A DNA stretch of 53,846 bases from an uncultured Clostridia bacterium (GCA_947165755.1 CAMVBR010000001.1:1-53846), one strand, 5' to 3'. Counted from the first letter of the stretch, positions 844 through 43,004 are shown. The notes: generated by a model from the letters alone, not told the origin. Numbers and translations are program-made.

Positions 844-981
844 ACCTTTGACGATGATACGGCAGAGAAAAAAAGGCTTAGCTCAGCACGCTTGCCTCGA
901 TCCCCGTGGAAGGAGGGGAGGCAGGCTTTATTATCACGGTGGACCGGTAATCCCGGTAAAACCGGAAGGAGGCTGTGACTT

Positions 982-2838: not shown

Positions 2839-2875
2839 GCCCCGGCCGCAACGGATTTTTCCGGAAGGATGACTT

Positions 2876-4342
2876 ATGCTGAAACACCGTGTTTTTACCG
2901 CCGGGCTGCTTGCCCTCCTGCTGCTGTGCGCGCCCGTTTTTTTCTTCGGCGCGCGCGGCGCGGCGCAGGCGGACGTGGTTGAGATCGACTTCGGCCTGCA
3001 GCCGTCGGTTTACAAACGGCTGATCTCCGATACGCGCAACGTGCCGCGCAAGGCGTTCGTTTCCGTGAACGGCGGGCCGTATCAGCAGCTTCAGATCAAT
3101 ACCCGCGGCGCGTTCTCCCGCGTGATCGGGCAGGCGATGCCGTCGAAAAAGATCCCCCTGCGCGTGAAATTCCGTTCCGAAAACGATTTTTCCCCGGCGC
3201 TCTCCAATACCTCCGTGGTCTTTGTGAATTCCAAAATGCCCATGGAGCTGTTTACGGAGTATATCGCCCTCGATCTTTACGCCTCGCTCGGCGTTCCCAC
3301 CCCCGCCCATGCGTTTGCCTTCGTGCGGATGAACGGCGTGGACGTAAGCCCCTACCTGGCGGTGGAATCGGTGAATACGCGGTTTCTTGAGAAGCAGTTC
3401 GGCGGGGCGGAGGGCTCCCTGTATAAATCCACCTACGATTACGTGCCGTCCCCCTACCATGAATCCATCTGGTTCGGCGGGCTGGAGGCAAAATCCGACC
3501 GGGGGCACGAAACGCTGCTTCGTCTGCTGGACGCGCTGAACCGGCGCGAGGGGTATGAGGCGTATCTCGATATGGACGAAATACTGCGATATTTCGCCTG
3601 CACCGCCGCCGTAGGGGGAGAGGGCTCGCTGCTCACCGAGCAGAATAACTTCTTTCTTTATGACAACGGCGGTAAGATCGTGCTGATCCCGTGGGATCTG
3701 GGTACGGCCTTCGATACCTCGAAGCGCCCCAGCTGGATTGACTGCTTCTATCTGGACGATTACGAAGACCTGAAAACCCCGCTGTTCGAGCTGATCATGC
3801 AGAACCCGGAATATAAAGAAACCTATCACGCGTATCTGCGCGGGATCTGCGAAACCTTTCTTGCCCCGGCGCGGCTGCATCCTTACGTAACGGGCCTTGT
3901 GGAAACGCTCGCGCCTTATCTCGCGCGGGACGCCGCCATGTTCCTCACCGCGCCCACCACCCCGCAGGATCTGCTGACCGCGTCCGAAATGCAGTATTCC
4001 CCGCTGCTGTATACGCTGGACCGGTATTATCAGTCCCTCACGGCGCAGCTGGACGGGAAAAGCGGCGAGATGTATTACGATCCCGCGGGCGAAACGCTGG
4101 ATATGACCATGACGGGGGAGGGGATCGCCGATTTTCTTGCCGATTATTCCCCGATGCTGGATCCGTCCCTGCCGCAGAAGATCACGGACGCCTATCCGTC
4201 GTGGCGCGCCGGGTATCTGGGGGACGGCATTCCCGACGTGTATTACGAATACTGTATCGCGGGCGCGGTTTTTGTGTTCGGGTGCGCCGCGCTTGTGTTT
4301 TTCTTCCGCTTCCCGGCGCGGCGCGGCCGTACAAAGCGCTGA
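2876..4342 (+). CDS. CotH-family protein (atypical kinase fold family), secreted/membrane-anchored
   Basis: 488-aa ORF with GGAAGGA RBS and an N-terminal signal-like segment (LLALLLLCAPVFFFGARGAAQA). CotH-like core (..PLRVKF.., ELFTEYIALDLYASLGVPTPAHAFAFVRMNGVDVSPYLAVESVN..FLEKQFG..GSLYK). C-terminal hydrophobic anchor (AGAVFVFGCAALVFFF) followed by basic residues. Confidence 0.8.
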   Translation: MLKHRVFTAGLLALLLLCAPVFFFGARGAAQADVVEIDFGLQPSVYKRLISDTRNVPRKAFVSVNGGPYQQLQINTRGAFSRVIGQAMPSKKIPLRVKFRSENDFSPALSNTSVVFVNSKMPMELFTEYIALDLYASLGVPTPAHAFAFVRMNGVDVSPYLAVESVNTRFLEKQFGGAEGSLYKSTYDYVPSPYHESIWFGGLEAKSDRGHETLLRLLDALNRREGYEAYLDMDEILRYFACTAAVGGEGSLLTEQNNFFLYDNGGKIVLIPWDLGTAFDTSKRPSWIDCFYLDDYEDLKTPLFELIMQNPEYKETYHAYLRGICETFLAPARLHPYVTGLVETLAPYLARDAAMFLTAPTTPQDLLTASEMQYSPLLYTLDRYYQSLTAQLDGKSGEMYYDPAGETLDMTMTGEGIADFLADYSPMLDPSLPQKITDAYPSWRAGYLGDGIPDVYYEYCIAGAVFVFGCAALVFFFRFPARRGRTKR

Positions 4343-4363
4343 AATATATAATAAATAAAAAGC

Positions 4364-4429
4364 GCTGTTTCATAACGCCGCGGAATCGTTTCTGTTCCTG
4401 CGCCGTGTGAAACAGCCTTTTTTGTTTTT
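4364..4429. terminator. Possible bidirectional terminator between convergent genes
   Basis: GCTGTTTCA (4364-4372) pairs with TGAAACAGC (4408-4416), followed by CTTTTTTGTTTTT. The opposite strand is also T-rich after the stem. The loop is long (35 nt), so this call is weak. Confidence 0.35.
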
Positions 4430-4437
4430 CAGTTCGG

Positions 4438-6294: not shown

Positions 6295-6301
6295 GGCGCG
6301 T

Positions 6302-8158: not shown

Positions 8159-8195
8159 GAAAAACCGTCCCGGAATTTGAAATTCTTTCACTATA

Positions 8196-8224
8196 ATTAT
8201 ATGAAAAGCGATTTTCTTTGTCAA
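8196..8224 (-). promoter_or_regulatory. SigA-type promoter for the minus-strand P3-P2 operon
   Basis: On the minus strand, TTGACA (8224-8219), a 17-nt spacer, then TATAAT (8201-8196), about 40 nt upstream of the ATG at 8158. Confidence 0.5.
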
Positions 8225-8269
8225 TGGGCTTTGGCGTTCCCCGGGCAGACCCTTTCGGGGAAATACGTA

Positions 8270-8298
8270 TTGCATTTTTATGCATATCCTGTTAAAAT
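8270..8298 (+). promoter_or_regulatory. SigA-type promoter (extended -10) for the aminotransferase operon
   Basis: TTGCAT (8270-8275), a 17-nt spacer ending in TGt, then TAAAAT (8293-8298). The ATG is at 8330. Confidence 0.5.
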
Positions 8299-8329
8299 AG
8301 AACTGAACTATACCGAAACGGAGCCAAAT

Positions 8330-9427: not shown

Positions 9428-9438
9428 GAGGTGCGCAT

Positions 9439-10584: not shown

Positions 10585-10602
10585 GAAACGGAGGGCTCGC
10601 CA

Positions 10603-14056: not shown

Positions 14057-14260
14057 GCTGCATCTCCAAAAAATTATTCAATTGTATTTTAGTGAAAACG
14101 GTAAGATTTGTCAAGAAGAAGGGCCGCGCCGGGCCGCAGAAAAAACTTTTTGCCGCTGAAATCAAGAAAGAATGAACTGTGTGTGAACGGCGCCTTTTCT
14201 TTGGTTGGATTTGTCAGTTTTAAATAAACAGAAGTATAAAATTTTGTTGAAAAAGAGGGT

Positions 14261-14289: not shown

Positions 14290-14356
14290 TAATAATGTAT
14301 AAGTGGGGGCATTCTATGCCCTTTATACCCTACCCATAAAACAGGAGGAAGCATTT

Positions 14357-17300
14357 ATGAAAGCATACGGCAAAAAAGCGCTGAGTGTGTTTTTGGCTTT
14401 GCTGATGTGCCTCACCGTAATGGCGCTCGATTTTTCGGCGCTTACGGCGGGCGCGTATACCGCAAGCCCCACGCACTCCTACTATTTCAAAGTCGTCAAC
14501 ACGTGGAAAGACACGTATTATGACGGCGGCGACAGCGGCCGGATCACCGTTTACGGCAAAGACAAAAACGGTACCGGATCGCAGGTCACGCTGTGGAACA
14601 ACTATGACCTCGGCTCCGGATTTGTAGACGGCGGCGAGTCTACGACCAGTACCCGTACCGACGGTTACTGGCCCACGCAGGTTTACGTATCCGCGAACGT
14701 TGACAACAACAATAACATGTTCTACAACCCGCAGGGCGCGAACTTCCGGATCGACCTTTATGTCAGGGATGAGAATTCCGGCACATACAACCGTTACGAG
14801 TTCGCCACCTTCAGCTGGTCCTCCAGCACCGTGTCCGGCGGCGGCGGTACCTCGGGCAAAAATTCCGGCTGGAAAGATTGCCCCAGCGGTCTGTATCCCA
14901 AAGCCACAAAAGTCGCCACCAGCAAAAGCGAAGGCAACGCCGTCAACACCAACGCGGCCAACATCACGCTGAACGCCACCGGCGGCGCCAATAAGACGCT
15001 GAGCCTTTCCGCTTACGTATACGACCAGTATAACGCGATCTGGACCGCCGCGCCCAAGTCGTGGTCGGTTTCCGGTACCGTGGGCGGAGATGCTTCGCTT
15101 TCCACCACCGGAGCGAACGAGAACAATACGCTTACCGTAACGGCAACGAAATACACCCGCGCGAAGGCGAACCTGACGGTAAAGGCCAATTACGACAGCC
15201 TGTATCATCAGTGGACCGTGCCGATCACGCCCACTTATAAAATCACGTATAACGTGAGCGGCAACGGCGGCACCTCTGCCGTACCGGGGCCCGATAACAC
15301 GGCGAACGGCACTGCAAACGCGAACGTGAGCTATACGATCCCGAGCGGCGGCAATTACACCGCCAAAAAAGAGAAGGGCAGCTCTTCCACCGGCACCTGG
15401 ACCTTCGTCGGCTGGAACGGCTCGCAGAGCGCCACCAGCGGCACGAAGCCCGGCAGCGCCATCACGATCGATAACTATAACGATACGCTCTACGCCATCT
15501 TCAGCAAAACCGCCACGGCCACCTTCAATTGGTATAACGCCAGCGGTACGCGCCAGTCGCAGAACGTGACAAGTACGGTTTATAACAACGCCACGCAATA
15601 CAGCTTCGCCGTACCCAGCGTGCCCGCCACCATGACCGCGAACAATACCACGTATACCTTCGCGGGCTGGGCGGTCGACAGCACCACCAAGACCTCGGCG
15701 GATCACGCCAAGACCGAAACCACGGTCAAGCGGAACATTAAAAACGGTAACCTGACGGATACCTATCAGTTCTATGCGCTTTATACTTCCAGCGTAACGC
15801 TTTCCTATAATAATAACGGCGGTTCCGGCTCGCCCGCGAGCCAGACCGGCAATCTGGTGCTGAACTGCGGCGCCAACGCCTCCGCGGCGGCGAACACCAG
15901 CGGCCGCGCCACCTTTACGCTCAACCCGGATAACGTGCGTATGACCCGCAGCTATTCCTCCGATTTCGTCGGCTGGAATACCAGCCAGACGGATGCGCAG
16001 ACGAACGAGAGAGCGACCTATAAAGACGGCACCGTCACCTGGGGCGCCAGCAGCAGCCTGCCCACCACCATCACCATCGCCCAGAATACCACGGTTTACG
16101 CGGCGTATTACGATTTCCGCTACAACGTGAAGTTCTACGATTATAAGGGCACGCTGCTGAACACGCAGACCATCCGTCACAATTATTCCGCCACCGCGCC
16201 CGATATGCCCACGAACGCTTCCGCGCCGAGCCATACGGATTCCGGCAGCCACTACGTGTTCGATCACTGGGAGTATACCGACGGTTCTACTTACAGCAAC
16301 AGCGATAAGCTCAAGAAGCTTGTAAACGGCTATACCTACGAAGTATGGGGCAAATACGTGGGTCATAAGCACATCTGGGGCGAGCCCTACGATTTCGGCG
16401 GCGCCACCACCTGCACCACGGGCCAGACGTATAAGATGCGCTGCACCGTATGCGGCTTTGTGAGAGACTTCGAGGATGAGCCGATCGGCCACGCCTTTGA
16501 GGTAGTAGGCGTTGCCGAGCCCACCTGCACCAAGGCCGGTTCCTACGGCAAGAAGGTGTGCCGGAACTGCGGTGTGCTCGATCCCACTTACTCCGTGGTG
16601 ATCAACGGCGTTGAAACCCTGATTACCGACGAAAACCGTATTATCCCCGCACTGGGCCATGACTACGGCGACGTTAATTTCGATCATCTGACCGATGACG
16701 AAGGCAGCTTCCTTGTGGAACCCATCACGGTTGCCGCAACCTGTACCACCGCCGGGTATTACTACTATGAGTGCGCCCGCTGCGGCGAGAAAGCCCGCGT
16801 CGGCAATATCCCGGCTACCGGTCACGATTGGGACTCCCATGAACAGAAGGATCCCACCTGCACCGAGCCCGGCGAAGAGGCCTACACCGTATGTAAGAAC
16901 TGCGGCCTGTATCTTGAAGGTCATGAAACCGAAGCCCAGCGTGTGCTTCCGGCGCTCGGCCATGATTACAAGCTTGTGGAAGAAACCGATTCCACCTGCA
17001 CCGAAAAGGGCCACTATGCTTATTACGAGTGCGCGCGCTGCGGCGACCTCTTCGATGCCGATAAGGCCCAGATCGATGCCGTTCCCGAAAAGGATCTCGC
17101 GCCGCACGACTATCAGTTCGTCGACCACGTGGATGCCACCTGCACCGAGCCCGGTTACACCGGCGCATGGCTGTGCTCCGTCTGCGGCCAGGCCGATCCT
17201 GATAAGGAAGCCGGCAAAGTGATCCCCGCGCTCGGCCATGATCTGCCCGATACCTGGACGGAAGTTACGGCCGCCACCTGCGCCGCCCCCGGCGAAGAAA

Positions 17301-19171
17301 AGAGAGAATGCTCCCGCTGCGATTACGTTGAAACCCGCGAGATCCCGGCGCTCGAACACACGCAGGGCGAATATATCGCTCCCGCCGATCCCACCTGCAC
17401 CGAAGACGGCCACGGCGAAGGCTACTACTGCGCGAACTGCGACGGCTACTATCAGGAGCCCGCTGTGATCGCCGCGCTCGGCCACGACCTTGAAACCGTT
17501 GCAGGCACACCCGCCACCTGTACCGAGGAAGGCATCCCGGATTGCTACAAGTGCACCCGCTGCCAGAAACTCTTCTCCGATGCCAACGGCAAGAATGAGA
17601 TTACCGACGGCGTAGGCACCATCCCCGCCCTCGACCACAACTTCACCGATTGGGTGGTTGCGGTGCTTCCCACCGATACCGAAAAGGGCCTTGAAAAACG
17701 CAGATGTATCCGCTGCGGTATTGTGGAAGAACGGGAGATCGAGGCCCTCGGCCACGATATGACCTTCGTTCCCGCGAAGGACGCCACCTGCACCGAAGAC
17801 GGCAACGTCGCCTACTATGCGTGCGCCAACTGCGGCAAGGCCTTTGCCGATGAAAACGGCGAAACCGAGATCGCGAACCCCGTGATCGCCGCCCTCGGCC
17901 ACGATCTGCCCGCCGAGCCCGTCGAAAGCGTTGCGGCTACCTGCGTCGCCGACGGCTACAATAAATTTACCTGCGCGCGCTGCAATCTCACCGTGATCGT
18001 CGTTCTGCCCATGAACGGCGAGCATCCTGCCGACGCCATCATTCCTTACGGCGCCGATACGCCCGCAACCTGCGCCGCCACCGGTCAGCAGGCCGGCACC
18101 GTGTGCTCGCTGTGCGGCACCGTGATTACCAACGCCGTAACGCTGCCCAAGCTTGCGCATACGCCCGAAGCTGAAGTGAGAGACGCAAGAGCGGCCACCT
18201 GCATCGCAACCGGTTACACCGGCGATCTCTACTGCGCCGTATGTAATCAGGTGATCACCCCCGGTACTGTGATCGAAAAGACGATGCATCAGTTCGGCGA
18301 ATGGGTCACCGTAGAATCCACCTGCACGGAATACGGCTCCAGAACCCGCACCTGCGCCGTTTGCGGCGATACGGACGTCGTTGAGCTGCCGGTGCTCGGC
18401 CATCAGGTCGTAACCGATAAGGCAGTGGCCGCCACCTGCGACGCCGCCGGTAAGACGGCAGGTTCCCACTGCGCGCGCTGCGGCGAAGTGCTCGTTGCGC
18501 AAACGGAAATCGGCGCGAAGGGCCACGCCTATAAGTATCAGGTGGTCGAACCCACCTGCACCACGGTCGGCTACACGGTTTATACCTGCGTCAACGGCTG
18601 CGGCGATACCTACAGAGATAACTATACGCCCAAGCTTGACCACGTGGTCGGCACGCCCGCTACCTGCACGGCCCTTGCCGTGTGCGCGAACTGCGGCAGA
18701 TCCTTCGGTGAGTACGCACCGCACAACTACGTTAAGGATGAATCGGCCAGCAGACCCGCAACCTGCGCGGCCGACGGTGTGAACGTATTCGTATGCACCG
18801 CCTGCGGCGATTCTTATTCCGTAGCGATCACCGAGCGTCCCGTACACGTGGTAGATGAATCCACAAAGAATGTCACGTTTACCTCCTGCACCGAACCTGG
18901 GCGTATTACTTACGAATGCGCCAACTGCCACCAGATCGTTGTGGATGTTGAGCTGCCCGCCCCCGGACACAGCTATGTGAACGGTGTTTGCGAGAACTGC
19001 GGTCAGCCCGAACCCTCCTCCTCCGACGACAGCGGTTCTACCGTAACCTCTGAAAAATGCCCGAAGTGCGGTCTGAACCACAACGGCCGTACCGGCCTCT
19101 GGAAGCAGGACGGTCTCTTCTGCAAGATCATTGCCTTCTTCAGGAATCTGTTCGGATTCTTCAAAAGATAA
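14357..19171 (+). CDS. Large secreted repeat protein (1604 aa): signal peptide, Listeria-Bacteroides-type repeats, ~20 Cys-rich repeats, hydrophobic/amphipathic C-terminal tail
   Basis: Track ORF 14303-19171 trimmed to MKAYGKKALSVFLALLMCLTVMAL.. (AGGAGG upstream). Repeat signatures WTFVGWNG, YTFAGWAV, DFVGWNT and YVFDHWEY. The Cys-repeat array is listed separately. C-terminus CPKCGLNHNGRTGLWKQDGLFCKIIAFFRNLFGFFKR. Confidence 0.9.
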   Translation: MKAYGKKALSVFLALLMCLTVMALDFSALTAGAYTASPTHSYYFKVVNTWKDTYYDGGDSGRITVYGKDKNGTGSQVTLWNNYDLGSGFVDGGESTTSTRTDGYWPTQVYVSANVDNNNNMFYNPQGANFRIDLYVRDENSGTYNRYEFATFSWSSSTVSGGGGTSGKNSGWKDCPSGLYPKATKVATSKSEGNAVNTNAANITLNATGGANKTLSLSAYVYDQYNAIWTAAPKSWSVSGTVGGDASLSTTGANENNTLTVTATKYTRAKANLTVKANYDSLYHQWTVPITPTYKITYNVSGNGGTSAVPGPDNTANGTANANVSYTIPSGGNYTAKKEKGSSSTGTWTFVGWNGSQSATSGTKPGSAITIDNYNDTLYAIFSKTATATFNWYNASGTRQSQNVTSTVYNNATQYSFAVPSVPATMTANNTTYTFAGWAVDSTTKTSADHAKTETTVKRNIKNGNLTDTYQFYALYTSSVTLSYNNNGGSGSPASQTGNLVLNCGANASAAANTSGRATFTLNPDNVRMTRSYSSDFVGWNTSQTDAQTNERATYKDGTVTWGASSSLPTTITIAQNTTVYAAYYDFRYNVKFYDYKGTLLNTQTIRHNYSATAPDMPTNASAPSHTDSGSHYVFDHWEYTDGSTYSNSDKLKKLVNGYTYEVWGKYVGHKHIWGEPYDFGGATTCTTGQTYKMRCTVCGFVRDFEDEPIGHAFEVVGVAEPTCTKAGSYGKKVCRNCGVLDPTYSVVINGVETLITDENRIIPALGHDYGDVNFDHLTDDEGSFLVEPITVAATCTTAGYYYYECARCGEKARVGNIPATGHDWDSHEQKDPTCTEPGEEAYTVCKNCGLYLEGHETEAQRVLPALGHDYKLVEETDSTCTEKGHYAYYECARCGDLFDADKAQIDAVPEKDLAPHDYQFVDHVDATCTEPGYTGAWLCSVCGQADPDKEAGKVIPALGHDLPDTWTEVTAATCAAPGEEKRECSRCDYVETREIPALEHTQGEYIAPADPTCTEDGHGEGYYCANCDGYYQEPAVIAALGHDLETVAGTPATCTEEGIPDCYKCTRCQKLFSDANGKNEITDGVGTIPALDHNFTDWVVAVLPTDTEKGLEKRRCIRCGIVEEREIEALGHDMTFVPAKDATCTEDGNVAYYACANCGKAFADENGETEIANPVIAALGHDLPAEPVESVAATCVADGYNKFTCARCNLTVIVVLPMNGEHPADAIIPYGADTPATCAATGQQAGTVCSLCGTVITNAVTLPKLAHTPEAEVRDARAATCIATGYTGDLYCAVCNQVITPGTVIEKTMHQFGEWVTVESTCTEYGSRTRTCAVCGDTDVVELPVLGHQVVTDKAVAATCDAAGKTAGSHCARCGEVLVAQTEIGAKGHAYKYQVVEPTCTTVGYTVYTCVNGCGDTYRDNYTPKLDHVVGTPATCTALAVCANCGRSFGEYAPHNYVKDESASRPATCAADGVNVFVCTACGDSYSVAITERPVHVVDESTKNVTFTSCTEPGRITYECANCHQIVVDVELPAPGHSYVNGVCENCGQPEPSSSDDSGSTVTSEKCPKCGLNHNGRTGLWKQDGLFCKIIAFFRNLFGFFKR
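16360..19010 (+). repeat. Tandem array of ~20 coding repeats (~44 aa each): [AP]TC[TA]..G-x(4-6)-C-x2-C-[GDNQ] ... [IL]PALGH[DNTS]
   Basis: Read from the translation, for example ATCTTAGYYYYECARCG..IPATGHDW, PTCTEPGEEAYTVCKNCG..LPALGHDY, STCTEKGHYAYYECARCG, ATCTEPGYTGAWLCSVCG..IPALGHDL, and so on to TSCTEPGRITYECANCH..APGHSY. One copy is degenerate (PTDTEKGLEKRRCIRCG). Confidence 0.8.
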
Positions 19172-19190
19172 CCGTTAACGGTTTGCTCCG

Positions 19191-19232
19191 CGCCCCGGAT
19201 GAAGATCCGGGGCGTGTTTCTGTTTTGCTGCG
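19191..19232 (+). terminator. Rho-independent terminator after the 1604-aa protein gene
   Basis: CGCCCCGGA (19191-19199), loop TGAAGA, TCCGGGGCG (19206-19214), then TGTTTCTGTTTT. Confidence 0.65.
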
Positions 19233-19242
19233 CAGGACGAGG

Positions 19243-19271
19243 TTGACATAAAATCGGCTGTTTGCTATAAT
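19243..19271 (+). promoter_or_regulatory. Consensus SigA-type promoter for the VTC/DUF4956/rSAM operon
   Basis: TTGACA (19243-19248), a 17-nt spacer, then TATAAT (19266-19271). It leaves a ~130-nt leader before the ATG at 19402. Confidence 0.5.
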
Positions 19272-19401
19272 GCAGTTAAATGAAAAAGCAGAAAATTCCG
19301 GGCGTTTTGCTTTGCTTCGGTTGCATTTAAGGCGTCCGGCACTATCGTTTTGCGGGGAAAGACAAAGCCCGTCTTTGCCCGGAAGGAGGAAATCCGGCAG
19401 T

Positions 19402-20079
19402 ATGAGCTGCAGGCAGGAATTGAAATATGAGATCTCCGCGGCGGAGCGGGAGCTGCTTCTGCGGCGGCTGTCGGCGGTATTGCTGCGCGACCCCTACGCG
19501 ACGGCGGACGGGACCTATCGGGTGCGCACGCTCTATTTCGACGATCTTGAGAATACCGCGTTGGGCGATACGCTTTCCGGTGCGCCGGAGCGGGAAAAGT
19601 TCCGCCTGCGCATGTATAATCTCGATCCCTCGTTTTTGCGACTTGAGAGAAAAACCAAGCGGTACGGCGGCGGCACAAAGCCGGAGCTGCGTCTGAGCGT
19701 GGCTCAGGCGCAAAGCCTTCTGCGCGGCGAATACGGTTTTCTTTCGGCGCGGCCGGAGCCCTTCGCGCAGGTCTGCCTGGCCGACGCGCGTGCGGGCGGC
19801 CTCAAGCCCCGCACGGTGGTGGAGTACACCCGCGCCGCGTTCTGCGACGCTTCCGGCAGTGTGCGCGTTACGCTCGACAGTGATATCCGCGTGTCGCCGC
19901 GCACGGACGCCTTCTTCGCGCCGACGCTCTCGGGTATGCCCGCGGCTGCGCAGGGCGAATGCGTGCTGGAGCTGAAATACGATCAGTATCTGCCCGATTA
20001 TATTCCGCAGCTCATCGGCTCCGTGGGCCGGCTGCGCACTGCCTATTCCAAATTTGCCGCAAGCGGCGTTTACTTTTGA
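19402..20079 (+). CDS. VTC-domain (polyphosphate-polymerase-like domain) protein
   Basis: Track ORF 19270-20079 trimmed to MSCRQELKYEI.. (GGAAGGAGGAAA upstream). VTC-like pattern R.ELKY, YRVRTLYFDD, REKFRLRMY, LERKTK..G.T.K. Confidence 0.85.
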   Translation: MSCRQELKYEISAAERELLLRRLSAVLLRDPYATADGTYRVRTLYFDDLENTALGDTLSGAPEREKFRLRMYNLDPSFLRLERKTKRYGGGTKPELRLSVAQAQSLLRGEYGFLSARPEPFAQVCLADARAGGLKPRTVVEYTRAAFCDASGSVRVTLDSDIRVSPRTDAFFAPTLSGMPAAAQGECVLELKYDQYLPDYIPQLIGSVGRLRTAYSKFAASGVYF

Positions 20080-20095
20080 TGCAGGAGGTATCATC

Positions 20096-20788
20096 ATGAC
20101 GGGATTGCTCTCTGTGAGCTTTTCAGACATTTTTCAATCGGATTTTCTGAACCGCATCACGCAGTTTTCGGTTACGGACAGCGCCATTGCGCTCGTGCTC
20201 AGCTTTCTGATCGGTTTGATTATCTACTTTATCTATTCCAGAACCTTTGCGGGGGTCGTGTATTCGGGTTCCTTCAACCTGTCGCTCATCGCCATGACCA
20301 TGATCACCACGCTGGTGATCCTCGGCGTCACGTCCAACATCGTGCTGTCGCTGGGTATGGTGGGCGCGCTTTCCATCGTGCGGTTCCGCTCCGCCATCAA
20401 AGACCCCATCGATATCGTATTTATCTTCTGGGCCATCAGCGAGGGTATTCTGTGCGGCGCGGGGCTCATTCCGCTGGCGCTCATCGGGGCGCCCATCATC
20501 GGCGTGCTGCTGCTGGTATTCACCGCCCGCAAGGATTATTCCGCGCCGTATCTGCTCATCGTGCGGTTCGACGACGCGAAAATGGACCGTAAGGTGGAGG
20601 AGACGGCCAAAAAAGCCGTCAAACGCTGCCGGGTCAAATCCAAAACGCTGGTGGGCGGCAGCGGCATGGAGCTGATCCTTGAGGTGCGTCCGGTAAAGGA
20701 TGATACCGATTTCGTACAAAAGATCAACGCCATGGAGGGCGTTACCTATACCTCGCTTGTAAGCTACGACGGTAACTATACGCCGTGA
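20096..20788 (+). CDS. DUF4956-family membrane protein
   Basis: Track ORF 20054-20788 trimmed to MTGLLSV.. (AGGAGG upstream). Hallmark LGMVGALSIVRFRSAIKDPIDIVFIFWAISEGILCGAG, plus TM segments and a soluble C-terminal domain. Confidence 0.85.
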   Translation: MTGLLSVSFSDIFQSDFLNRITQFSVTDSAIALVLSFLIGLIIYFIYSRTFAGVVYSGSFNLSLIAMTMITTLVILGVTSNIVLSLGMVGALSIVRFRSAIKDPIDIVFIFWAISEGILCGAGLIPLALIGAPIIGVLLLVFTARKDYSAPYLLIVRFDDAKMDRKVEETAKKAVKRCRVKSKTLVGGSGMELILEVRPVKDDTDFVQKINAMEGVTYTSLVSYDGNYTP

Positions 20789-20832
20789 TCCGGCGGCCTG
20801 TTCCTTAAGAGAACAGGGGGGGGAGCGCGATC

Positions 20833-22773
20833 ATGAAAAACGTATATTTCGTTCAGGTAGATATCACTGCGGACGCCGGTTCGCGCAACGTCTACCTGCC
20901 CTACACCGCCGGTTTGCTGGCGGCAAACGCCTGGACGAGCGAAGCGGTCCGGACGCGGTTTCTTCTGAAGGACTTCCTTTTTCTTCGCGATAAGATCGGC
21001 GACGTGCTTTCCTCGTTGGAAGCGCCCGCCGTTATGCTGTTCTGCTGCTACTGCTGGAACACGGAGTACAACAAAGCGCTGGCAAAGGCCGTGAAGGCGG
21101 CCTATCCCGATTGCGTGATCGTGTTCGGTGGCCATAACGTGCCCGATGATACGTCTTTTCTGGAGGCCTTTCCGTATATCGATATCCTGAGCCATGGGGA
21201 AGGGGAGGCCACCGTGAAGGCGCTTCTGGAGGCGCTGGCCCTCGGCGCGCCGCTGGCGTCTGTTTTTAACGTTTCATTCCGCACGCAAAGCGGCGAATGC
21301 GTGCATACCCCTGCCGCGCAGGCCTGCGGCACGGATTATCCGTCCCCGTATCTGGAAGGGCTGTTCGACGGTATCCTGCGGCGGTACCCCGGGATCTCCT
21401 TCAACGCCACGCTCGAAACCACCCGCGGCTGCCCGTATCACTGCGCCTATTGCGATTGGGGGCCGCTGGAATCCCGCGTGCGCATGTTTCCCATGGAGCG
21501 CGTCAAGGCCGAGATCCTTTGGATGAGCGAGCATAAGATCGCGTTTCTCTGGGAGGTGGACGCCAATTTCGGTCTGTTTGAACGGGATGCCGAAATCGCG
21601 GATTTTTTGGTGGAAACCAGAAAGCGCACCGGTTACCCGGAGCGTATGCGCGTGAATTACGCCAAAAACAACCCGCAAACGGTGTTTGAGATCACGCAGA
21701 AATTCCGGGACTGCAATTTTGACCGGGGCGGCGCAACGCTCTCGTTTCAGAGCATGTCGCCCGAGGTGCTGCGGAACATCGGCCGCACGAACCGCGATAT
21801 CGCGTTTTATAAAGCGCTTCTTACCGAATACAACCGCGAAAACATACGCACGTATTCCGAGCTGATCCTCGGGCTGCCCGGCGAAACCTACGAGAGCTTT
21901 ATCCGCGGGGTGGGCATGCTGTTTGAAATCGGGCAGCATTTCGTTTATCACGTGTTTTCGTGTATTCTGCTCCCCAATTCTCTGATGGGGCAGAAGGCGT
22001 ATATTGAAAAATACGGCATCCGTACGGTGCGCGCAAGAATAGAGAGCGCCCACGCGCGCAATGATCCCGATGAGATCCCGGAATATAACGAGGTCATCGT
22101 AGAAACCGGCACCCTGTCCAGAGCGGAATGGGTGCGGGCAAAGGCGTTCAATCTGCTCGCCACGGTGATGCACGCCTCCGGCCTGCTGCGGGTGTTTGCC
22201 GTTTATGCGTATGTGGAAAACCGCCTGCCCTACGAGCGGTTTTATAACGATATGCTTTCCTATATGGAAGCCGGCGCCGGGCTTCGGTTCCCCTCGCTTT
22301 TTATGCGGCTTGCGGCGCGCTTTGAAGCCCTGTCTCGCGCGATGCCCGTGCCGAACCTGACGTTCGCGCCGTGCGGCGACGTCGTATGGGAGGATCACGA
22401 GTATTTCGTGCTTTGCGCGCTTGCGGAGGACGACCTGTTTTACCGGGAGCTCACGCCGTTTTTGCGGCGGTTCGTGCCGGATGAGACGTTGTTTGCGGAT
22501 CTGCTTGCTTACCAGCGGGCCGTTCTGCGCCGCCCGCAGTCGGCGGAGTGCCGCCTGCATCTGCAATACGACGTACACGGGTTTATTTCGGATGCATACG
22601 TCAGCGATTTCCATCCGGTCCGATCGCGGAGGAGCCTGCTCGTTCTGCGCGATTCCGCGCCCATGCCGGATTGGCCCTCCTTCGGTAAGCAGGTGATCTG
22701 GTACGGCCGCATGGGCTGGGCCTCTTATAAGGACGATATCTCTCAGTTGCCCGCCGACGCGCCTGTGCTATGA
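20833..22773 (+). CDS. Cobalamin-binding-type (class B-like) radical SAM enzyme, ~640-aa family, module A
   Basis: GGGGGGAG RBS. MKNVYFVQV.., YLPYTAGLLAANAW, FCCYCWNTEYNKALAKAVKAAYPDCVIVFGGHNV and HGEGE. CX3CX2C at 21427-21453 (TTRGCPYHCAYCDWG), then SELILGLPGETYESF and a C-terminal VIWYGR. Confidence 0.9.
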   Translation: MKNVYFVQVDITADAGSRNVYLPYTAGLLAANAWTSEAVRTRFLLKDFLFLRDKIGDVLSSLEAPAVMLFCCYCWNTEYNKALAKAVKAAYPDCVIVFGGHNVPDDTSFLEAFPYIDILSHGEGEATVKALLEALALGAPLASVFNVSFRTQSGECVHTPAAQACGTDYPSPYLEGLFDGILRRYPGISFNATLETTRGCPYHCAYCDWGPLESRVRMFPMERVKAEILWMSEHKIAFLWEVDANFGLFERDAEIADFLVETRKRTGYPERMRVNYAKNNPQTVFEITQKFRDCNFDRGGATLSFQSMSPEVLRNIGRTNRDIAFYKALLTEYNRENIRTYSELILGLPGETYESFIRGVGMLFEIGQHFVYHVFSCILLPNSLMGQKAYIEKYGIRTVRARIESAHARNDPDEIPEYNEVIVETGTLSRAEWVRAKAFNLLATVMHASGLLRVFAVYAYVENRLPYERFYNDMLSYMEAGAGLRFPSLFMRLAARFEALSRAMPVPNLTFAPCGDVVWEDHEYFVLCALAEDDLFYRELTPFLRRFVPDETLFADLLAYQRAVLRRPQSAECRLHLQYDVHGFISDAYVSDFHPVRSRRSLLVLRDSAPMPDWPSFGKQVIWYGRMGWASYKDDISQLPADAPVL

Positions 22774-22881
22774 GCCGCCGCGCCCCTTTTTTGGAGCCTC
22801 GCGGGCTTGAGGGGAAATGACTTTGGGATGTATCGCATCGCGCGATAAATCCCAATTTCCGGATCTTTCCGCCTCCCCCAC

Positions 22882-22916
22882 GGGCAACCGCTTCGGTTGC
22901 CCTTTTTTATTTTTTT
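22882..22916 (+). terminator. Rho-independent terminator ending the VTC/DUF4956/rSAM-A operon
   Basis: GGGCAACCG-CTT-CGGTTGCCC (22882-22902), followed by TTTTTTATTTTTTT. Confidence 0.75.
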
Positions 22917-22982
22917 ATAGCCCGATCTCTGCAGCCGCCCCTCCGCCCGCGCCGCGGCGGCTGCCCTGCGCGGTTTTTCACC

Positions 22983-23011
22983 TTGACAATCAGGTGCTTT
23001 GATGGTAAAAT
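22983..23011 (+). promoter_or_regulatory. SigA-type promoter (extended -10) for the long sugar/rSAM operon
   Basis: TTGACA (22983-22988), a 17-nt spacer ending in TGg, then TAAAAT (23006-23011). The ATG is at 23050. Confidence 0.55.
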
Positions 23012-23049
23012 TATAAAGGTTAACTATAAGGGGAAAAGGGCTGATTTTT

Positions 23050-23985
23050 ATGGCAAATATCCTGATTACCGGCGGCGCGGGCTACATCGGCTCGGTGCTC
23101 ACCCCCATGCTGCTCGAAGCGGGGCACGAGGTCACGGTGCTGGATTCGTTTTTATATAAGCAGAATTCGCTGCTGGACTGCTGCAAATATAAGTCGTTTC
23201 ATATCGTGAACGGCGACGCACGCGATGTGGATACCCTCAAAAAGGTGCTGCCGGGCAAGGATTTCATCTTCCCGCTGGCGGCGCTGGTGGGCTTTCCCGT
23301 GTGCGATAAAGATAAAACGGCGGCCGTCACCGTGAATCAGGGGGCGGTGGAAACCCTGCTTTCGCTGCGTTCGCCCGAACAAAAGGTGATCTTTCCCTGC
23401 ACCAACAGCGGCTACGGTCTGGGGCAGGGGCAGGCTTACTGCACCGAGGAATCTCCTATTTCTCCCATTTCGCTTTACGGCAAAACCAAAATGGCGGCGG
23501 AAAAAGCCGTTCTGGAGGCGGGCAACAGCGTCACCTTCCGGTTCGCTACCCTCTTCGGCGCCTCGCCCCGTATGCGCACCGACCTGCTGGTGAACGATTT
23601 CGTCTACCGCGCCGTGTTCGACCGGGCGCTGCTGGTGTTCGAGGGGCAGTTCAAGCGCAATTTCCTCCACGTGCGCGACGCCGCCGCCGCTTTTATGTTC
23701 GCCATGGAGCATTTCGACGAAATGAAGGGGCAGACCTACAACTGCGGCCTTTCGGACGCCAATCTCAGCAAGCTGGAGCTGTGCGCCGAGATCAAAAAAC
23801 AGCTTCCCGCGTTCGTATATATCGAAGCCCCCGTGGGCACGGACCCCGATAAGCGCGATTATATCGTCTCCAACGCCAGGATCGAGGCGCTGGGCTACCG
23901 CCCCCGGTATTCGCTGGCGGATGGGATCGAAGAGCTCACGAAGGTGTACTCCATTATCAAGAATTCATTCTACGGGAACGTGTGA
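23050..23985 (+). CDS. NAD-dependent sugar epimerase/dehydratase (extended SDR)
   Basis: ILITGGAGYIGS Rossmann motif and a YGKTK (YxxxK) catalytic motif; 311 aa. Confidence 0.9.
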   Translation: MANILITGGAGYIGSVLTPMLLEAGHEVTVLDSFLYKQNSLLDCCKYKSFHIVNGDARDVDTLKKVLPGKDFIFPLAALVGFPVCDKDKTAAVTVNQGAVETLLSLRSPEQKVIFPCTNSGYGLGQGQAYCTEESPISPISLYGKTKMAAEKAVLEAGNSVTFRFATLFGASPRMRTDLLVNDFVYRAVFDRALLVFEGQFKRNFLHVRDAAAAFMFAMEHFDEMKGQTYNCGLSDANLSKLELCAEIKKQLPAFVYIEAPVGTDPDKRDYIVSNARIEALGYRPRYSLADGIEELTKVYSIIKNSFYGNV

Positions 23986-26295: not shown

Positions 26296-27010
26296 ATACA
26301 GCCTTTCGGTGCTGATCTGCGCCACCGACGAAACCTTTTCCCTGGAGCGTACCTTCCGTAAGCTGGACGCCGTCGGCGCGGCGGACGAGTACCTGTTCGT
26401 TCTTTCGAAAACCTGCGCGCCGGAATGCCTTGCCACGGTGGAGCGCCTGTGCGCGCGCGCGGACTGCCGCTGGATGTACCAGAGCGAAACGGGGCTCGGC
26501 AACGCCGTACGGGATTCCTTTGCCGTGGTGCGGGGCACGCATCTCGCCCTGTGGAGCGCCGACGAGGCCACCGACGCCGCCTCCTTCCCCGAAATGGCGC
26601 GGCTTTCCAGAGAAAACCCCGATAAGATCGTGAAGATCAGCCGCTGGCTGCACCCCGACGGTTTTGAAGGCTACGGTCGTCTGAATAAAATGCTCAATTA
26701 TATCTCGCAGCGCGCGTTCGGTCTCATGTTCCGTTCCCGGCTCACCGAGTTCACCAACCCCACGCAGATCGCCCCCGTGGCGGTCTACCGCCGCATCCGC
26801 TGGCAGCATACCGGCTTCGATTTTCTGCCCGAAATGATCTTCAAGCCCTTGAAGCTGGGCGTGGGATTTATCGAGGTCCCCACCAAAAACGTTCCCCGCG
26901 AGGAGGGCCGTTCGGGCAACACGCTGCTCAGCCACGTCCGTTACTACCGTACCATTCTGCAGATCTTCTTCACAAAGCCGGAGGATCTGGTTGAGGAGGC
27001 AAAGCCGTGA
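26285..27010 (+). CDS. GT2-like glycosyltransferase (weak call)
   Basis: 241-aa ORF overlapping the upstream stop by 11 nt. It opens with LSVLICATDETFSLERTFRKL, like GT2 N-termini. I found no clean DxD motif. Confidence 0.5.
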   Translation: MENEYSLSVLICATDETFSLERTFRKLDAVGAADEYLFVLSKTCAPECLATVERLCARADCRWMYQSETGLGNAVRDSFAVVRGTHLALWSADEATDAASFPEMARLSRENPDKIVKISRWLHPDGFEGYGRLNKMLNYISQRAFGLMFRSRLTEFTNPTQIAPVAVYRRIRWQHTGFDFLPEMIFKPLKLGVGFIEVPTKNVPREEGRSGNTLLSHVRYYRTILQIFFTKPEDLVEEAKP

Positions 27011-30000
27011 AAAACGTATATTTCGTTCTGGCAAACAAGTCCTACGGAAAAGCGCTGTATTTTCCGTATGCCTCCGGCTGCCTTGCGGCCTACGCCTGGG
27101 CGGATGAAGAGATCCGCAGCGAATATAACCTTGCGGGCTTCATTTATAAACGCGATCCGATCGACGTCGCTCTTGAAAAGCTGAAGGATCCCGACGTGGT
27201 GGCCTTTTCCTGCTACATGTGGACCATTGAGTATAATAAGCTGCTGGCCGCCGCCCTGAAAGAAAAATATCCCGATTGCCTCATTCTGTTCGGCGGGCAC
27301 GAGATCTCCCACCGGAGCGAGCTTTCCGCCTATCCCTACGTGGATCTGTTCACCTTCGGCGAAGGGGAGATCCCCTTCAAAAAGCTGCTGCTGGCCGTAA
27401 AGCGGGGCGAGCCGCTCACTGTGGTGCCCAACAGCGCCGTACGCACGGAAAACGGCGTGGTATTCACCGAAAAAGAGGTGTATAAGGCCCTCGATTATCC
27501 CTCGCCCTATACCACCGGCGTGTTCGACGGCATCATTGCCGAAAACCCCGGCGTGGAATTCGACGTCACCATAGAAACCAACCGGGGCTGCCCCTATATG
27601 TGCGCCTACTGCGACTGGTGCTACGTGCCGCAGGTGCGCCCCTTCCCCATGGAGAAGGTCAAGGCCGAGATCGACTGGTGCGCCGATCACAAGGTGGAAT
27701 ATATCTACAACGCGGATGCCAACTTCGGCATCCTCCCGCGCGATTACGAGATCGCCGAATACGCGGTTCAGGTGAGCAGGCGCACCGGCTTCCCGCAGGT
27801 GTTCAACGCCTGCTACGCCAAAAACAGCAACGATAATGTGTTCGCCATCTCCAAGCTGCTGTACGATAACAAGATCAACAAGGCCATCACGCTGGCCTAC
27901 CAGACCGTATGTGACCGTGCGCTCAGGAACGTGAACCGCACCAACTTCACCATGGAGGCCTTCGCCGATCTGGTGCACCGCTACAACGAGCACGGCATCC
28001 CCACCTATACCGAGCTCATCATGGGCCTGCCCGGCGAAACCTACGATAGCTTCTGCGAGGGCATCTGCAAGCTCATCGAGGCGGGGCAGCACAACGCCAT
28101 GACCGTATACGGCTGTCAGGTGTTCCAGAACGCCCTCATGGCCACAAAGGAATACCGCGAAAAATTCGGCATCGTCACCGCGCACGTCAAGCAGGGCAGC
28201 GTGCATTCCTCGCCCCTGCCCCCCGGCGAGATCCAGGAATATACCGATCTTGTGATCGCCACCAACGATATGCCCTTCGACGATATGATCCGCTCGCTCA
28301 TGTTCTGCACCTGCGTGCAGGGCTTCCACCATATCGGCATGCTCAAATGCTTCGCCATTTACATGCGGCAGGAAAAGGGCATGCCCTATATCGAATTTTA
28401 CCGTAAGCTGCTCGGCTTCATCTACGCCGCCGAGGGCACCTTCCTGAACCGGCTTTTCAAACGCTTCGAGGCGGAATGCCGCGATCTGAGCCACGGCGAA
28501 TGGACCTACGTCAGCGAGGAATTCGGCGATATCGGCTGGTATTACGACGAAGGCCTCTTTATGGAGACCGCCAAGCACTACGACGAATTCTGGGCCGAGA
28601 TCCCGCCGTTCCTGGCCTCCCTCGGGCTGGAGGACGAAATGCTCCGGGAGCTCAGCCGCTATCAGCGGACTATGATCCGGCTTCCGAACCAGTCCCACGT
28701 ACGCGAGCATTTTGCTTACGATTTCACCTCCTATTTCCGCTCTGCGCTGGAGTTAAAGCCCGTGCCGCTGAAAAAACGCGGCAACACCGTGGATATCGTC
28801 ATCCCGAACCCGGTTTACGACTGGCACGCCTACAGCCGTCAGGTGATGCTGTTCGCAAAAAAGAAGAGTGCCACGCTTCTGTTCAAGGATATTCAGAACG
28901 AGGTCCGCGTGATCTACGACGACCCCGCCGGGGCCGCCGACGCAAAAAAAAACGTATATTTTATTCAGGTGAATGATTTTTACGGCAACGAGCGCAAAAG
29001 CGCCTACCTGCCCTACGCGGCGGGCTGCATTCAGGCCTACTGCATGCAGGATGCCGATATCGCTGCGCGCTGCCGTTTCGGGCGGATCGTATACTACCGC
29101 GAGGATCCCGACGCGATTGCCGCCCGGTTTGAAGACCCCTATATGGTGCTGTTTTCGTGCAGCGTATGGAATACCGAATTCAACAAGGCGCTGGCAAAGG
29201 CGGTCAAGCGCCGATACCCCGGGTGCTTCATCGTATTCGGCGGGCACCACGTCTCCTCCGATCTCTCGTTTTTGGCGGAAAATCCCACGGTAGATTTCGT
29301 TACCCACAATGCCGGCGAGGAGCCCACCGCGCTGCTGCTGAAGAGCCTGCTGCTGGGGCGGCCCCTGTCTGAGGTGCCGAATCTTTCCTACCGCGCGCCG
29401 GACGGCAGCGCCGTGACCACGCCCATCCTGCCCCAGACCGGCAGCGATTACCCCTCGCCCTATCTTGCGGGCGTGTTCGATGACCTGCTTTCGGACGACG
29501 TGGAATTCTCGATGGTGTTCGAAACCAACCGGGGCTGTCCCAATTCCTGCACCTTCTGCGATTGGGGTCAGCTCAAGAGCAAGGTGCGCCTGTTTCCGCT
29601 GGAGCGGGTGTTTGCCGAACTGGACTGGATGGTGGCGCATAAGATCGAATACGTTTACTGCGCCGACGCCAACTTCTGCCTGTTCAGCCGGGATGAACAG
29701 ATCGTAGACCGTGTGGTGGAATATAGCCGCAAATACGGCTATCCCAAAATATTCCACGTCAATTTTACGAAGAACCGCACCGATTTTGTGTTCGATATCT
29801 CCTCCAGAATGATCCGCAACGGGCTCTCCAAGGCGCAGACCATCGCGTTTCAGAGCATGGACCCCACCGTGCTCTCCAATATCGGCAGGCAGAATATGTC
29901 GCCGGCGCATTTCCGGTCGCTCATGCGCCGCTTCAACGAGAACCACATCGCCACCTATTCCGAGCTGATCCTCGGGCTGCCCGGGGAAACCTACCGCAGC

Positions 30001-41627: not shown

Positions 41628-43004
41628 CTACGTCTCTCTACCGAAATACCCGTCCAGCGCGGCGAGCCTTTGCCGGATGAACCGGGTGAAATCGTCCGGA
41701 AGATTGTTATACACAACGGCCTCCTGCGGCCAGCGCGCAGCCTCCGCCGCGCGTACGGGGCCCGGGACCTGCCCCAGATGCGCCGAAAACAGCGCCTGCG
41801 CGTGTTCTTCGGTGAACAGCGTTTCCCGCAGGGCGGCCCAGCGGGCGCGGATCTCGGGCATGAAGCAGTCCGCCATTCGGGAAAACAGCCGGTGCGTCCG
41901 CCATACCTCGCCGCTGTTCCACACCGAGTCTTCGTCGGAGATCCCGGCGGGCAGCCGCCACGTTTTATCCAGATCGTAGGCGGAGGGCAGGTAGGTCCTG
42001 CCGTCGAAGGTGGCCCATAGCATATTCCGGCCCATATTATCGGCGCCGCATACGAACAGGGCAAACAGCATATAATCGATCACGCGGTCCGGGTCGGTAT
42101 AGTCCCCGAGGCGGGCTCTGAAATCCGCGTCGCCGGTGTCGTTCACAAAGGCGATCAGCCGGTTCATGCCGTCGAAAAGCCAGCCTGTCCCCTCGGGGGC
42201 GTCCTCGGTGGCGCAGTACTCCACGCTCCAGCCCGATACCTCCGGCGGGGCGGACGGGTCGATCTGCGCGTACATGGAAACCGCGTACCGCCAGTATTCC
42301 GCAAACAGCAGCCCGGCGCGCTGCTCTTCCTTTTTCATGCCGAAGATCCAGCGGTTTTTCGGCGTGTTCAGCGTATACAGCCCCTGAAATCTGCCGTTCA
42401 TATACAAAAGCACAGGGCGGCCGTCCACAGCCCCGCCGTTCACGAGCGGGGTCAGCCGGTCGTTTTTGCCCTCGTCGCGCACGAGCTCGCCCCAAAGCCT
42501 TGCCGAAACCAGGTTTCTCGCCCCGGCGTAATCGTCCCAGTTTGCCTTCAGGCAGTATTTGCTCTGTTTGCCCCAGGCGTCCTTGAGCCGGATCTCGTTT
42601 TTCCGCCCGCCTGCGGTCAGAAACTGCACGCTGAAATTCTTTTTCGGAAACAGCAGCGAGGATTCCCCCTGCCATTTCAGCGAAGCGAGGGTGGTAAAGG
42701 CGGTCTCGCCGTCGTAATGCAGGGTCGCCGTCACCTTTTCGGTTTTCGAGATCCCTTCCGTTCCACCCTCGATCCGCACCACGGGCAGCCCCGTGTTTTT
42801 ATAGCTTACGCTTTCTTCGTAGGTCTCGCCGCACGTATCGCACCGAAAAACCCCGCAGCAGGGGATCGGGCCGGGCGCGTCCGTTTTCAACGCCGTAAGC
42901 GTGCCCGTATGTTTATGGGTCCCGCAGCCGGCCGGCAGCAGAACGGCTGCGCAAAGCAGCAGCGCCGCAAGCGCGGCGTACGGCGGTTTTTTCTTTTTTT
43001 GCAT
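41628..43004 (-). CDS. CotH-family protein, lipoprotein-like signal
   Basis: AAAGGAGG RBS and signal MQKKKKPPYAALAALLLCAAVLLPAGCG (lipobox-like). CotH core KKNFSVQF, KYCLKANWDDYAGARNLVSARLWGELV and RPVLLYMNGRFQGLYTL. Confidence 0.8.
   Translation of the reverse strand: MQKKKKPPYAALAALLLCAAVLLPAGCGTHKHTGTLTALKTDAPGPIPCCGVFRCDTCGETYEESVSYKNTGLPVVRIEGGTEGISKTEKVTATLHYDGETAFTTLASLKWQGESSLLFPKKNFSVQFLTAGGRKNEIRLKDAWGKQSKYCLKANWDDYAGARNLVSARLWGELVRDEGKNDRLTPLVNGGAVDGRPVLLYMNGRFQGLYTLNTPKNRWIFGMKKEEQRAGLLFAEYWRYAVSMYAQIDPSAPPEVSGWSVEYCATEDAPEGTGWLFDGMNRLIAFVNDTGDADFRARLGDYTDPDRVIDYMLFALFVCGADNMGRNMLWATFDGRTYLPSAYDLDKTWRLPAGISDEDSVWNSGEVWRTHRLFSRMADCFMPEIRARWAALRETLFTEEHAQALFSAHLGQVPGPVRAAEAARWPQEAVVYNNLPDDFTRFIRQRLAALDGYFGRET

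Follow-up and report, generated by a model that had tools for sequence, protein, structure and literature searches.

The locus described here raises the question of whether a pair of genes putatively involved in polyphosphate (polyP) synthesis and a neighboring radical SAM enzyme belong to one biochemical system or were brought together by rearrangement. The genes lie at positions 19402-22773 of a 53,846-nucleotide (nt) stretch of DNA from an uncultured Clostridia bacterium (GCA_947165755.1, CAMVBR010000001.1:1-53846), here called the window, and encode a VTC-domain protein, a DUF4956 membrane protein, and a B12-type radical SAM protein (radical SAM A). In a first-pass annotation, made from the sequence alone, the first two were grouped with two CotH-family genes located elsewhere in the window, and this triad was considered to be tied to a cobalamin-type radical SAM battery and to glycan genes. 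From the comparison with related loci, we find it very likely that 19402-22773 is a composite operon, consisting of a conserved VTC-DUF4956 core and an inserted radical SAM A. The overall explanation that we favor on balance combines this composite operon with polyP synthesis that would serve an extracytoplasmic partner.

Transcriptional organization of the three-gene operon

The window has a G+C content of ~59%, and nearly all of it is taken up by one cell-surface glycan locus. The domain assignments made at first reading were checked against Pfam, which agreed with all of them. The VTC-domain protein (19402..20079, plus strand; 225 amino acids, aa) matched PF09359 with an E-value of 1.5e-30, the DUF4956 membrane protein (20096..20788, plus strand) matched PF16316 at 4.5e-11, and radical SAM A (20833..22773, plus strand; 646 aa) matched Radical_SAM at 4.4e-10. 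The two CotH-family proteins, CotH1 (2876..4342, plus strand) and CotH2 (41628..43004, minus strand), matched PF08757 at 7.9e-31 and 1.4e-20, scoring 108.2 and 74.5 bits against a gathering cut-off of 23.8. The start of the VTC gene at 19402 is supported because its homologues are uniformly 225 aa long. A gap of 17 nt separates it from the DUF4956 gene, for which the ATG at 20096 is a likelier start than the TTG at 20054 because the relatives measure 229-232 aa.

The operon boundaries proposed in the annotation were recovered as well. A sigma-70-type promoter at 19243..19271 (plus strand) fits TTGACA-17-TATAAT with a 12/12 match and carries an upstream TG (extended -10). Four sites with at most one mismatch to this consensus were found in the window, compared with 0.08 expected, and 0/100 shuffles reached four; a comparable promoter precedes the VTC gene in a related locus (L005). 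Directly upstream, an intrinsic terminator at 19189..19216 (plus strand; 12-bp stem with 9 GC pairs, then a T-run) closes the gene of a giant surface protein (14303-19171), and its folding (-25.7 kcal/mol, z -6.4) indicates that the operon is insulated from that gene. The intrinsic terminator of the operon itself (plus strand) has a 9-bp stem with 7 GC pairs at 22882-22902 (-16.9 kcal/mol, z -4.8), followed by a U-tract to 22918. The 45 nt that separate DUF4956 from radical SAM A gave no terminator-like structure when folded against shuffles. The three genes are thereby well supported as one predicted transcription unit.

Two other candidate elements in this region were rejected. A hairpin at 20797-20817 folded no better than shuffles (z -0.5) and is not followed by a U-tract. 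A regulatory RNA or cobalamin riboswitch in the ~125-nt operon leader found no support in Rfam, where searches returned nothing, either across the whole window at gathering scores or, at E ≤ 1, within 19100-23100.

The unit that follows, encoding an epimerase, a cupin, and radical SAM B-E, has its own promoter and leader at 22983..23049 (plus strand), both shared by relatives. The promoter (22983-23011) matches the consensus at 11/12 positions, again with the TG. The stretch GATGGTAAAATTATAAAGGTTAACTATA is almost identical in two of these relatives (L001 and L005), where protein identity reaches only 60-90%, and the conserved promoter and leader may constitute a regulatory site. Because of the operon terminator and this separate promoter, radical SAM A alone of the battery is placed on the VTC transcript. 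A functional link of the triad to the battery is not supported by this layout, in which the other radical SAM genes stand behind both elements.

Probable insertion of radical SAM A into a conserved gene order

We compared the window with the contigs carrying the nearest VTC homologues (60-75% identity), which are syntenic with it. Identity to the window was 72% for VTC and 87% for DUF4956 in L001/L002, and 60% and 78%, respectively, in L005; the DUF4956 proteins of L096 and L093 were 84% and 86% identical. The gene order in L001/L002 and L005 runs giant protein, VTC, DUF4956, epimerase, cupin, radical SAM B, GT2-like, and radical SAM C, D, and E. The same epimerase, cupin, and radical SAM B continuation follows DUF4956 in L096 with nothing inserted, and a gene for a multi-transmembrane (multi-TM) protein follows it in L093. 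Radical SAM A is thus missing after DUF4956 in all of the syntenic relatives. When the junctions were read from the sequence, the DUF4956 stop of the relatives was found to directly precede a hairpin and T-run, after which come a promoter and leader near-identical to window positions 22983-23049 and then the epimerase. In the window, radical SAM A stands at this junction, with the DUF4956 stop codon on one side and the operon terminator on the other.

The ancestry of the enzymes agrees with this picture. The syntenic loci encode an ortholog of each of radical SAM B, C, D, and E, with 70-89% identity, whereas radical SAM A finds only paralogs there, which match most of its sequence at 38-46% (tblastn). 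Its own orthogroup, at 55-61% identity, is distributed over many Clostridia assemblies, and three independent orthologs (L009, L010, and L091/L092) lie inside radical SAM batteries and away from VTC. We propose that a KedN5-like B12 radical SAM C-methyltransferase paralog entered the operon downstream of the DUF4956 stop and ahead of the terminator of the pair. On these comparisons the radical SAM link to the module appears incidental and the insertion lineage-specific.

A radical SAM gene had also been suspected after DUF4956 in the nearest relative (GCA_016648615.1, a 5.7-kb contig), where a gene of at least 488 aa begins 60 nt downstream. From the DNA of L093, this gene was found to encode a multi-TM protein of the unk602 family.

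Radical SAM A is assigned to the B12-type, KedN5-like C-methyltransferase family. It contains the CX3CX2C motif at C200/C204/C207 and a weak B12-binding match (1.5e-5) that falls under the Pfam cut-off, and it is 41% identical to radical SAM B. The top NCBIfam match of both proteins was NF033712, the methylcobalamin-dependent KedN5 family, with 231 bits for A and 212 bits for B against a cut-off of 700 bits; the match of A has an E-value of 2e-68, yet remains short of the family cut-off. Radical SAM A and B resemble KedN5 in combining B12 with a radical SAM core, in the CX3CX2C motif of A, and in their sugar-biosynthesis context, but they differ in a C-terminal extension of ~250 aa specific to this clostridial group. 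Judged from these scores, radical SAM A is a member of a related but distinct family. Since its best match is to the KedN5 family, a role in sugar modification fits, and it most likely works with the neighboring sugar-modification battery and not with VTC and DUF4956.

Nine radical SAM domains, spread over eight genes, were counted in the window. Positions 27007-30879 form a 1290-aa open reading frame that fuses two 640-aa radical SAM units; the fusion is also present in L005 (1294 aa), whereas L001 encodes the units separately. Radical SAM B was apparently split or frameshifted in L002 and L005.

Distribution of the VTC-DUF4956 module

The module was next placed in a wider survey. A scan of species-representative genomes returned at least 592 relatives, from which the best 80 loci (L011-L090), almost all from Clostridia, were analyzed. 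A second scan of DUF4956 loci in metagenomes gave 80 loci with flanks of up to 6 kb, of which 63 were informative for VTC and 70 for CotH. DUF4956 stood directly behind VTC in 76/80 genome loci, with two more interrupted by contig ends, and VTC stood directly ahead of DUF4956 in 60/63 metagenome loci. CotH was adjacent in 55/80 genome loci, directly behind DUF4956 in 52 and ahead of VTC in three. In the metagenomes it was adjacent in 59/70 loci and directly downstream of DUF4956 in 58/70. When loci lacking CotH were examined, the gene directly behind DUF4956 encoded a PF14262 Cthe_2159 carbohydrate-binding beta-helix protein in nine of the ten tested (L030, L035, L041, L048, L051, L058, L059, L067, and L081), apparently an alternative third partner. 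In terms of gene order, the conserved unit thus appears to be VTC-DUF4956 together with an adjacent secreted partner, with radical SAM A outside it.

The surroundings of this unit varied. A histidine kinase or response regulator occurred among the two genes upstream of VTC in ~40% of genome loci (29 histidine kinases and 21 OmpR-type response regulators), and a few loci, such as the Flavonifractor-like L007/L008, carried sigma/RsgI anti-sigma genes instead. Neither pel nor radical SAM families were among the 25 most frequent upstream families in the genome loci, and the genes downstream of the module were heterogeneous. Most clostridial copies lie outside both pel loci and glycan loci. The complete VTC-DUF4956-CotH string was encountered in the cultured Clostridioides difficile HC132 (L074) and Acetobacterium paludosum DSM 8237 (L069), which offer tractable systems for genetics. 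The module is highly prevalent among Clostridia of the gut and rumen and includes a putative polyphosphate polymerase of eukaryote-like type.

These counts agree with the earlier recognition of CotH/VTC/DUF4956 as a recurring bacterial neighborhood. The further impression that the system had not been described did not hold. In 2020, the pelDEADAFG genes of streptococci, clostridia, and bifidobacteria were reported to be directly adjoined by an accessory set encoding CotH, a polyphosphate polymerase, and DUF4956, along with DUF4832 (Whitfield et al. 2020, PMC7112168), and the set was genetically tested in Streptococcus intermedius in 2025 (PMC12345266). The S. intermedius authors reported no occurrence of the arrangement away from pel loci, and our survey contradicts this. 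It adds that the module extends beyond pel loci, is often under a two-component system, and can have its CotH replaced by a Cthe_2159 protein.

In line with the first reading, we then considered whether VTC and DUF4956 might act with the B12 radical SAM enzymes and the products of the glycan genes in one integrated envelope-modification pathway on a shared substrate, such as a phosphorylated, C-methylated surface glycan. The shared promoter and terminator enclosing the three genes, with no terminator before radical SAM A, would suit such a pathway, as would the presence of the pair inside the same radical SAM-rich glycan locus in all close relatives. In addition, L094 (positions 125-4520) contains CotH-VTC-DUF4956 followed after 15 nt by a B12 radical SAM gene of the 490-aa type, the product of which is 62% identical to that of window positions 40074-41564, a gene that abuts CotH2 in convergent orientation. 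The survey argues otherwise. None of L001/L002, L005, L093, and L096 carries radical SAM A at this position, and the orthologs of this enzyme do not adjoin VTC. No 640-aa-type radical SAM, the type of radical SAM A, was found behind DUF4956 in ~148 informative loci, and only L094 among them had any radical SAM there, of a different family (0/80 when the genome loci are taken separately). As a recurring adjacency, the pairing of VTC-DUF4956 with this radical SAM type is thereby refuted on the terms that the annotation itself had set. A B12 radical SAM of any kind was nearby in just 2/80 genome loci (10 kb) and 2/80 metagenome loci, and module copies are mostly stand-alone, with two-component genes as their frequent upstream neighbors. 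We regard the integrated pathway as very improbable and as the least supported of the alternatives considered.

A polyphosphate/kinase module mechanistically tied to B12 radical SAM chemistry thus fails the comparison with relatives. What stands of the proposed association is at the level of the locus: copies in this clade always lie in a radical SAM and glycan locus, much as streptococcal copies lie in pel loci. Two points count against treating the link as wholly incidental. L094 leaves some room for a clade-level connection of the module with radical SAM enzymes, and co-transcription with radical SAM A could carry regulatory meaning.

CotH proteins and the split triad

The topology of both CotH proteins was found to be as first described. 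CotH1 has a signal peptide, a CotH kinase-like domain, and a C-terminal membrane anchor, and CotH2 is of the lipoprotein type, with the lipobox LLPAGC. Neither gene is contiguous with VTC-DUF4956, since CotH1 lies ~15 kb upstream and CotH2 ~21 kb downstream.

CotH1 nevertheless appears to be the original partner. It is 71% identical to the L004 CotH, whose gene lies immediately before VTC, and the two share the same upstream neighbor. This orthology indicates that the triad is present in the window but split by ~15 kb. In L004 (VTC 59% identical), the order is three copies of unk620, CotH, VTC, DUF4956, two minus-strand multi-TM genes, DegT, radical SAM, and GT2, so that the locus is collinear with window positions 3-4282, then 19402-20788, then 4450-11307. 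On contig P0002 of another relative, the order is giant protein, CotH, VTC, and DUF4956. The differing orders of L004, P0002, and the window imply that the module moves within this family of loci, and CotH1 would have been parted from VTC-DUF4956 through rearrangement inside a plastic surface-glycan locus. It was also considered whether L009 and L004 are two ends of one contig, which was rejected for lack of DNA overlap.

We examined the active-site motifs of both proteins. CotH1 matches the Bacillus cereus CotH structure 5jd9 at 6.4e-11 and retains the Asn and the metal-binding Asp of the WD motif (D251 in B. subtilis). In its motif GGEGS, however, the catalytic Asp (B. subtilis D228) is replaced by Glu, as it is in the L004 CotH (8497-9999), whereas nearly all other module CotHs and B. 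cereus CotH have Asp. The active-site motifs of CotH2 are divergent, and its alignment at those sites is unreliable. An N-terminal Cys motif in CotH2 gave a rubredoxin-like match and resembles the Cys motif of the giant proteins. No ortholog of CotH2 was found in the related loci compared.

The VTC-domain protein as a putative polyphosphate polymerase

The VTC-domain protein is a stand-alone domain with no hydrophobic or membrane segment. Its family profile matched the Vtc4 catalytic domain (3g3q) at 1.7e-12, and the top Foldseek match of its AF2 model (pLDDT 89.4) was the yeast Vtc4 polyP polymerase (3g3r; E 1.8e-13, TM 0.72). Across 22 relatives, no variation was seen at K8, R68, R70, K84, E190, and K217, which align with Vtc4 K200, R264, R266, K281, E426, and K458, reportedly the catalytic residues (Hothorn et al. 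2009). These features suggest that the protein is a Vtc4-type polymerase making polyP.

The tunnel could also host another chemistry, in which the protein would act as a tripolyphosphatase, a nucleotide cyclase, or a similar enzyme, and its small-molecule product or substrate would be read by the ACT-like domain of DUF4956. The fold is common to tripolyphosphatases and CyaB-like cyclases, and the remaining triphosphate-tunnel enzymes appear in Foldseek behind Vtc4 at ~1e-7. Residue E6, two positions ahead of the tunnel lysine, is invariant and corresponds to Thr in the yeast Vtc4 alignment; a Glu there resembles the ExExK motif of hydrolytic CYTH enzymes. However, Vtc4 is the best match in both sequence and fold, by approximately six orders of magnitude in E-value, and the position of Vtc4 K458 is held by an invariant Lys. 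The inactive paralogs Vtc2/3 no longer have this lysine. We judge this alternative chemistry to be quite improbable and retain polyP synthesis as the predicted activity.

Compared with the eukaryotic VTC complex (Vtc4/Vtc3/Vtc1; 3g3q, 7ytj, 8i6v), the window thus shares the tunnel domain, for which that complex is the best match, and the aligned catalytic residues, and in both an enzyme is paired with a membrane protein. The window protein differs in having no SPX domain and in a catalytic domain that is unfused to a membrane domain (Pfam). In its partner DUF4956, no resemblance to the VTC transmembrane domain could be detected, and an ACT-like domain is present instead.

DUF4956 and the proposed route to an extracytoplasmic partner

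DUF4956 is an extremely conserved protein of a large family, with 7909 relatives at E ≤ 1e-5. Hydropathy indicated several membrane-spanning helices and, at the C-terminus, a soluble domain, and the AF2 model, of moderate confidence (pLDDT 71), resolved five helices followed by a beta-alpha-beta-beta-alpha-beta domain. The strongest conservation falls in S80-G117, which contains a basic RFRxAxK loop; by the positive-inside rule, this loop and the ACT-like domain would face the cytoplasm. The C-terminal domain gave weak fold matches to ACT, NikR, and MgtC, including the Mycobacterium tuberculosis MgtC C-terminal domain (2lqj). For the membrane part, Foldseek returned no match to any solved channel or to VTC complex chains (7ytj, 8i6v, 9umg). 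Homology of DUF4956 to the VTC transmembrane channel was considered and rejected as unsupported, the only matches being the weak ACT-like ones to the C-terminal domain.

We tentatively put forward a mechanism in which the core directs polyP to the outside, a possibility worth stating more than a probable one. The cytoplasmic VTC protein would act as an ATP-using Vtc4-type polyphosphate polymerase, working at the membrane with DUF4956, and its product would be delivered to, or sensed for, the extracytoplasmic partner, which would modify or bind cell-surface polymers. The interaction of VTC with DUF4956, the export, and the target are steps that we infer. This mechanism was chosen because the order of cytoplasmic enzyme, membrane protein, and secreted protein is invariant, because the VTC active site is Vtc4-like, and because the module is repeatedly attached to surface-polymer loci (pel, and the glycan locus of the window). 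If polyP is exported, the source of a phosphoryl donor for a secreted kinase outside the cytoplasm would be explained. In its boldest form, which we consider unlikely, VTC-DUF4956 would be a minimal bacterial VTC machine, with DUF4956 handing polyP across to the CotH ecto-kinase as a donor or to Cthe_2159 as a ligand. Gram-positive bacteria could then phosphorylate or polyphosphorylate surface glycans and proteins without ATP.

The pair may instead serve phosphate or energy homeostasis, or signaling, within the cell. DUF4956 would then be an MgtC-like membrane regulator with an ACT sensor domain, controlling or controlled by a cytoplasmic tunnel enzyme making or hydrolyzing polyP, with no export and with the partner regulated indirectly. 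The layout of five helices and an ACT-like C-terminal domain is MgtC-like, 2lqj is among the weak matches, and no channel fold was matched; the S. intermedius DUF4956 protein SIR_1592 has likewise been likened to MgtC (PMC12345266). The frequent linkage of the module to two-component systems and anti-sigma factors also favors such a role, and a preprint by the S. intermedius authors suggests that polyP may remain cytoplasmic (10.1101/2024.04.20.589940). However, a purely intracellular role leaves unexplained the near-obligate neighboring secreted or anchored protein that completes the order from cytoplasm to membrane to outside, and DUF4956 has no MgtC match in Pfam at E ≤ 0.01. We regard this role as fairly unlikely.

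Several observations weigh against the delivery of polyP to an outside partner. In S. intermedius, mutants lacking DUF4956 (SIR_1592) or CotH (SIR_1594) had altered Pel levels and aggregated less, which counts in favor of the mechanism, whereas deletion of the VTC gene had no phenotype (PMC12345266); this difference argues against a strictly linear VTC, DUF4956, CotH pathway. Because the Cthe_2159 partner is not a kinase, the supply of phosphodonor to an ecto-kinase would not be the whole story. CotH1 itself, with Glu for the catalytic Asp, may be inactive or altered. Export is left without structural support by a DUF4956 model of only moderate confidence and a membrane part with no structural match. 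No mechanistic study of DUF4956, or of CotH with polyphosphate or VTC, surfaced in full-text literature searches.

Comparison with related bacterial loci

The closest described system is the Gram-positive pel accessory triad (SIR_1594-1592), which comprises the same three families as the window. Both contain a secreted CotH, a cytoplasmic VTC protein, and a membrane protein of four to five helices with an ACT-like domain, and both are tied to an extracellular-polymer locus. The window differs in its host locus, which is rich in radical SAM and sugar-modification genes and has no pel genes (no Pel family appeared among the Pfam matches of the window genes) and no DUF4832 hydrolase. Its CotH also lies ~15 kb off instead of being contiguous, and a radical SAM gene is co-transcribed. 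By its gene content, the window appears to be a further, rearranged instance of this known module.

A second comparison is offered by the Clostridium perfringens locus NELoc-2, which encodes two VTC-domain proteins, CotH, and sigma/anti-sigma factors (PMC11677781). It resembles L007/L008 in combining VTC and CotH with a sigma/anti-sigma pair, but is a plasmid-borne pathogenicity locus for which radical SAM or sugar-nucleotide genes are unreported.

Other features of the surface-glycan locus

The sugar-nucleotide enzymes of the window include a DegT aminotransferase, two epimerase/dehydratases, a cupin, an NTP-transferase, and a GHMP kinase. GT2 glycosyltransferases, several multi-TM proteins of around 600 aa, and two giant Cys-rich proteins were also noted. 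The multi-TM paralogs (~600-690 aa) are encoded at 982-2838 (plus strand), 4438-6402 (minus strand), 6302-8374 (minus strand), and 11553-13361 (plus strand), and further copies occur in L004 and L093. The two that were checked, 982-2838 and 11553-13361, have at least ten hydrophobic segments and a soluble C-terminal domain. No match was found in Pfam (four proteins), NCBIfam (two proteins), or Protein Data Bank (PDB) sequences (one protein), and the paralogs may be GT-C-like glycosyltransferases or polymerases.

The giant proteins are encoded at 14303-19171 (plus strand; 1622 aa) and 44809-53805 (minus strand; 2998 aa), and neither gave a family match in Pfam and NCBIfam searches. The first has a signal-anchor and numerous Cys-rich CxxC repeats. 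Giant-protein orthologs, 62-64% identical, stand before VTC in the relatives.

Two perfect or near-perfect -35/-10 promoters were also encountered on the minus strand, at 8196-8224 and 14086-14114. Because the former lies inside the long open reading frame 6302-8374 (minus strand), that gene probably begins near 8158. The DegT gene probably starts near 8330 and not at 7946.

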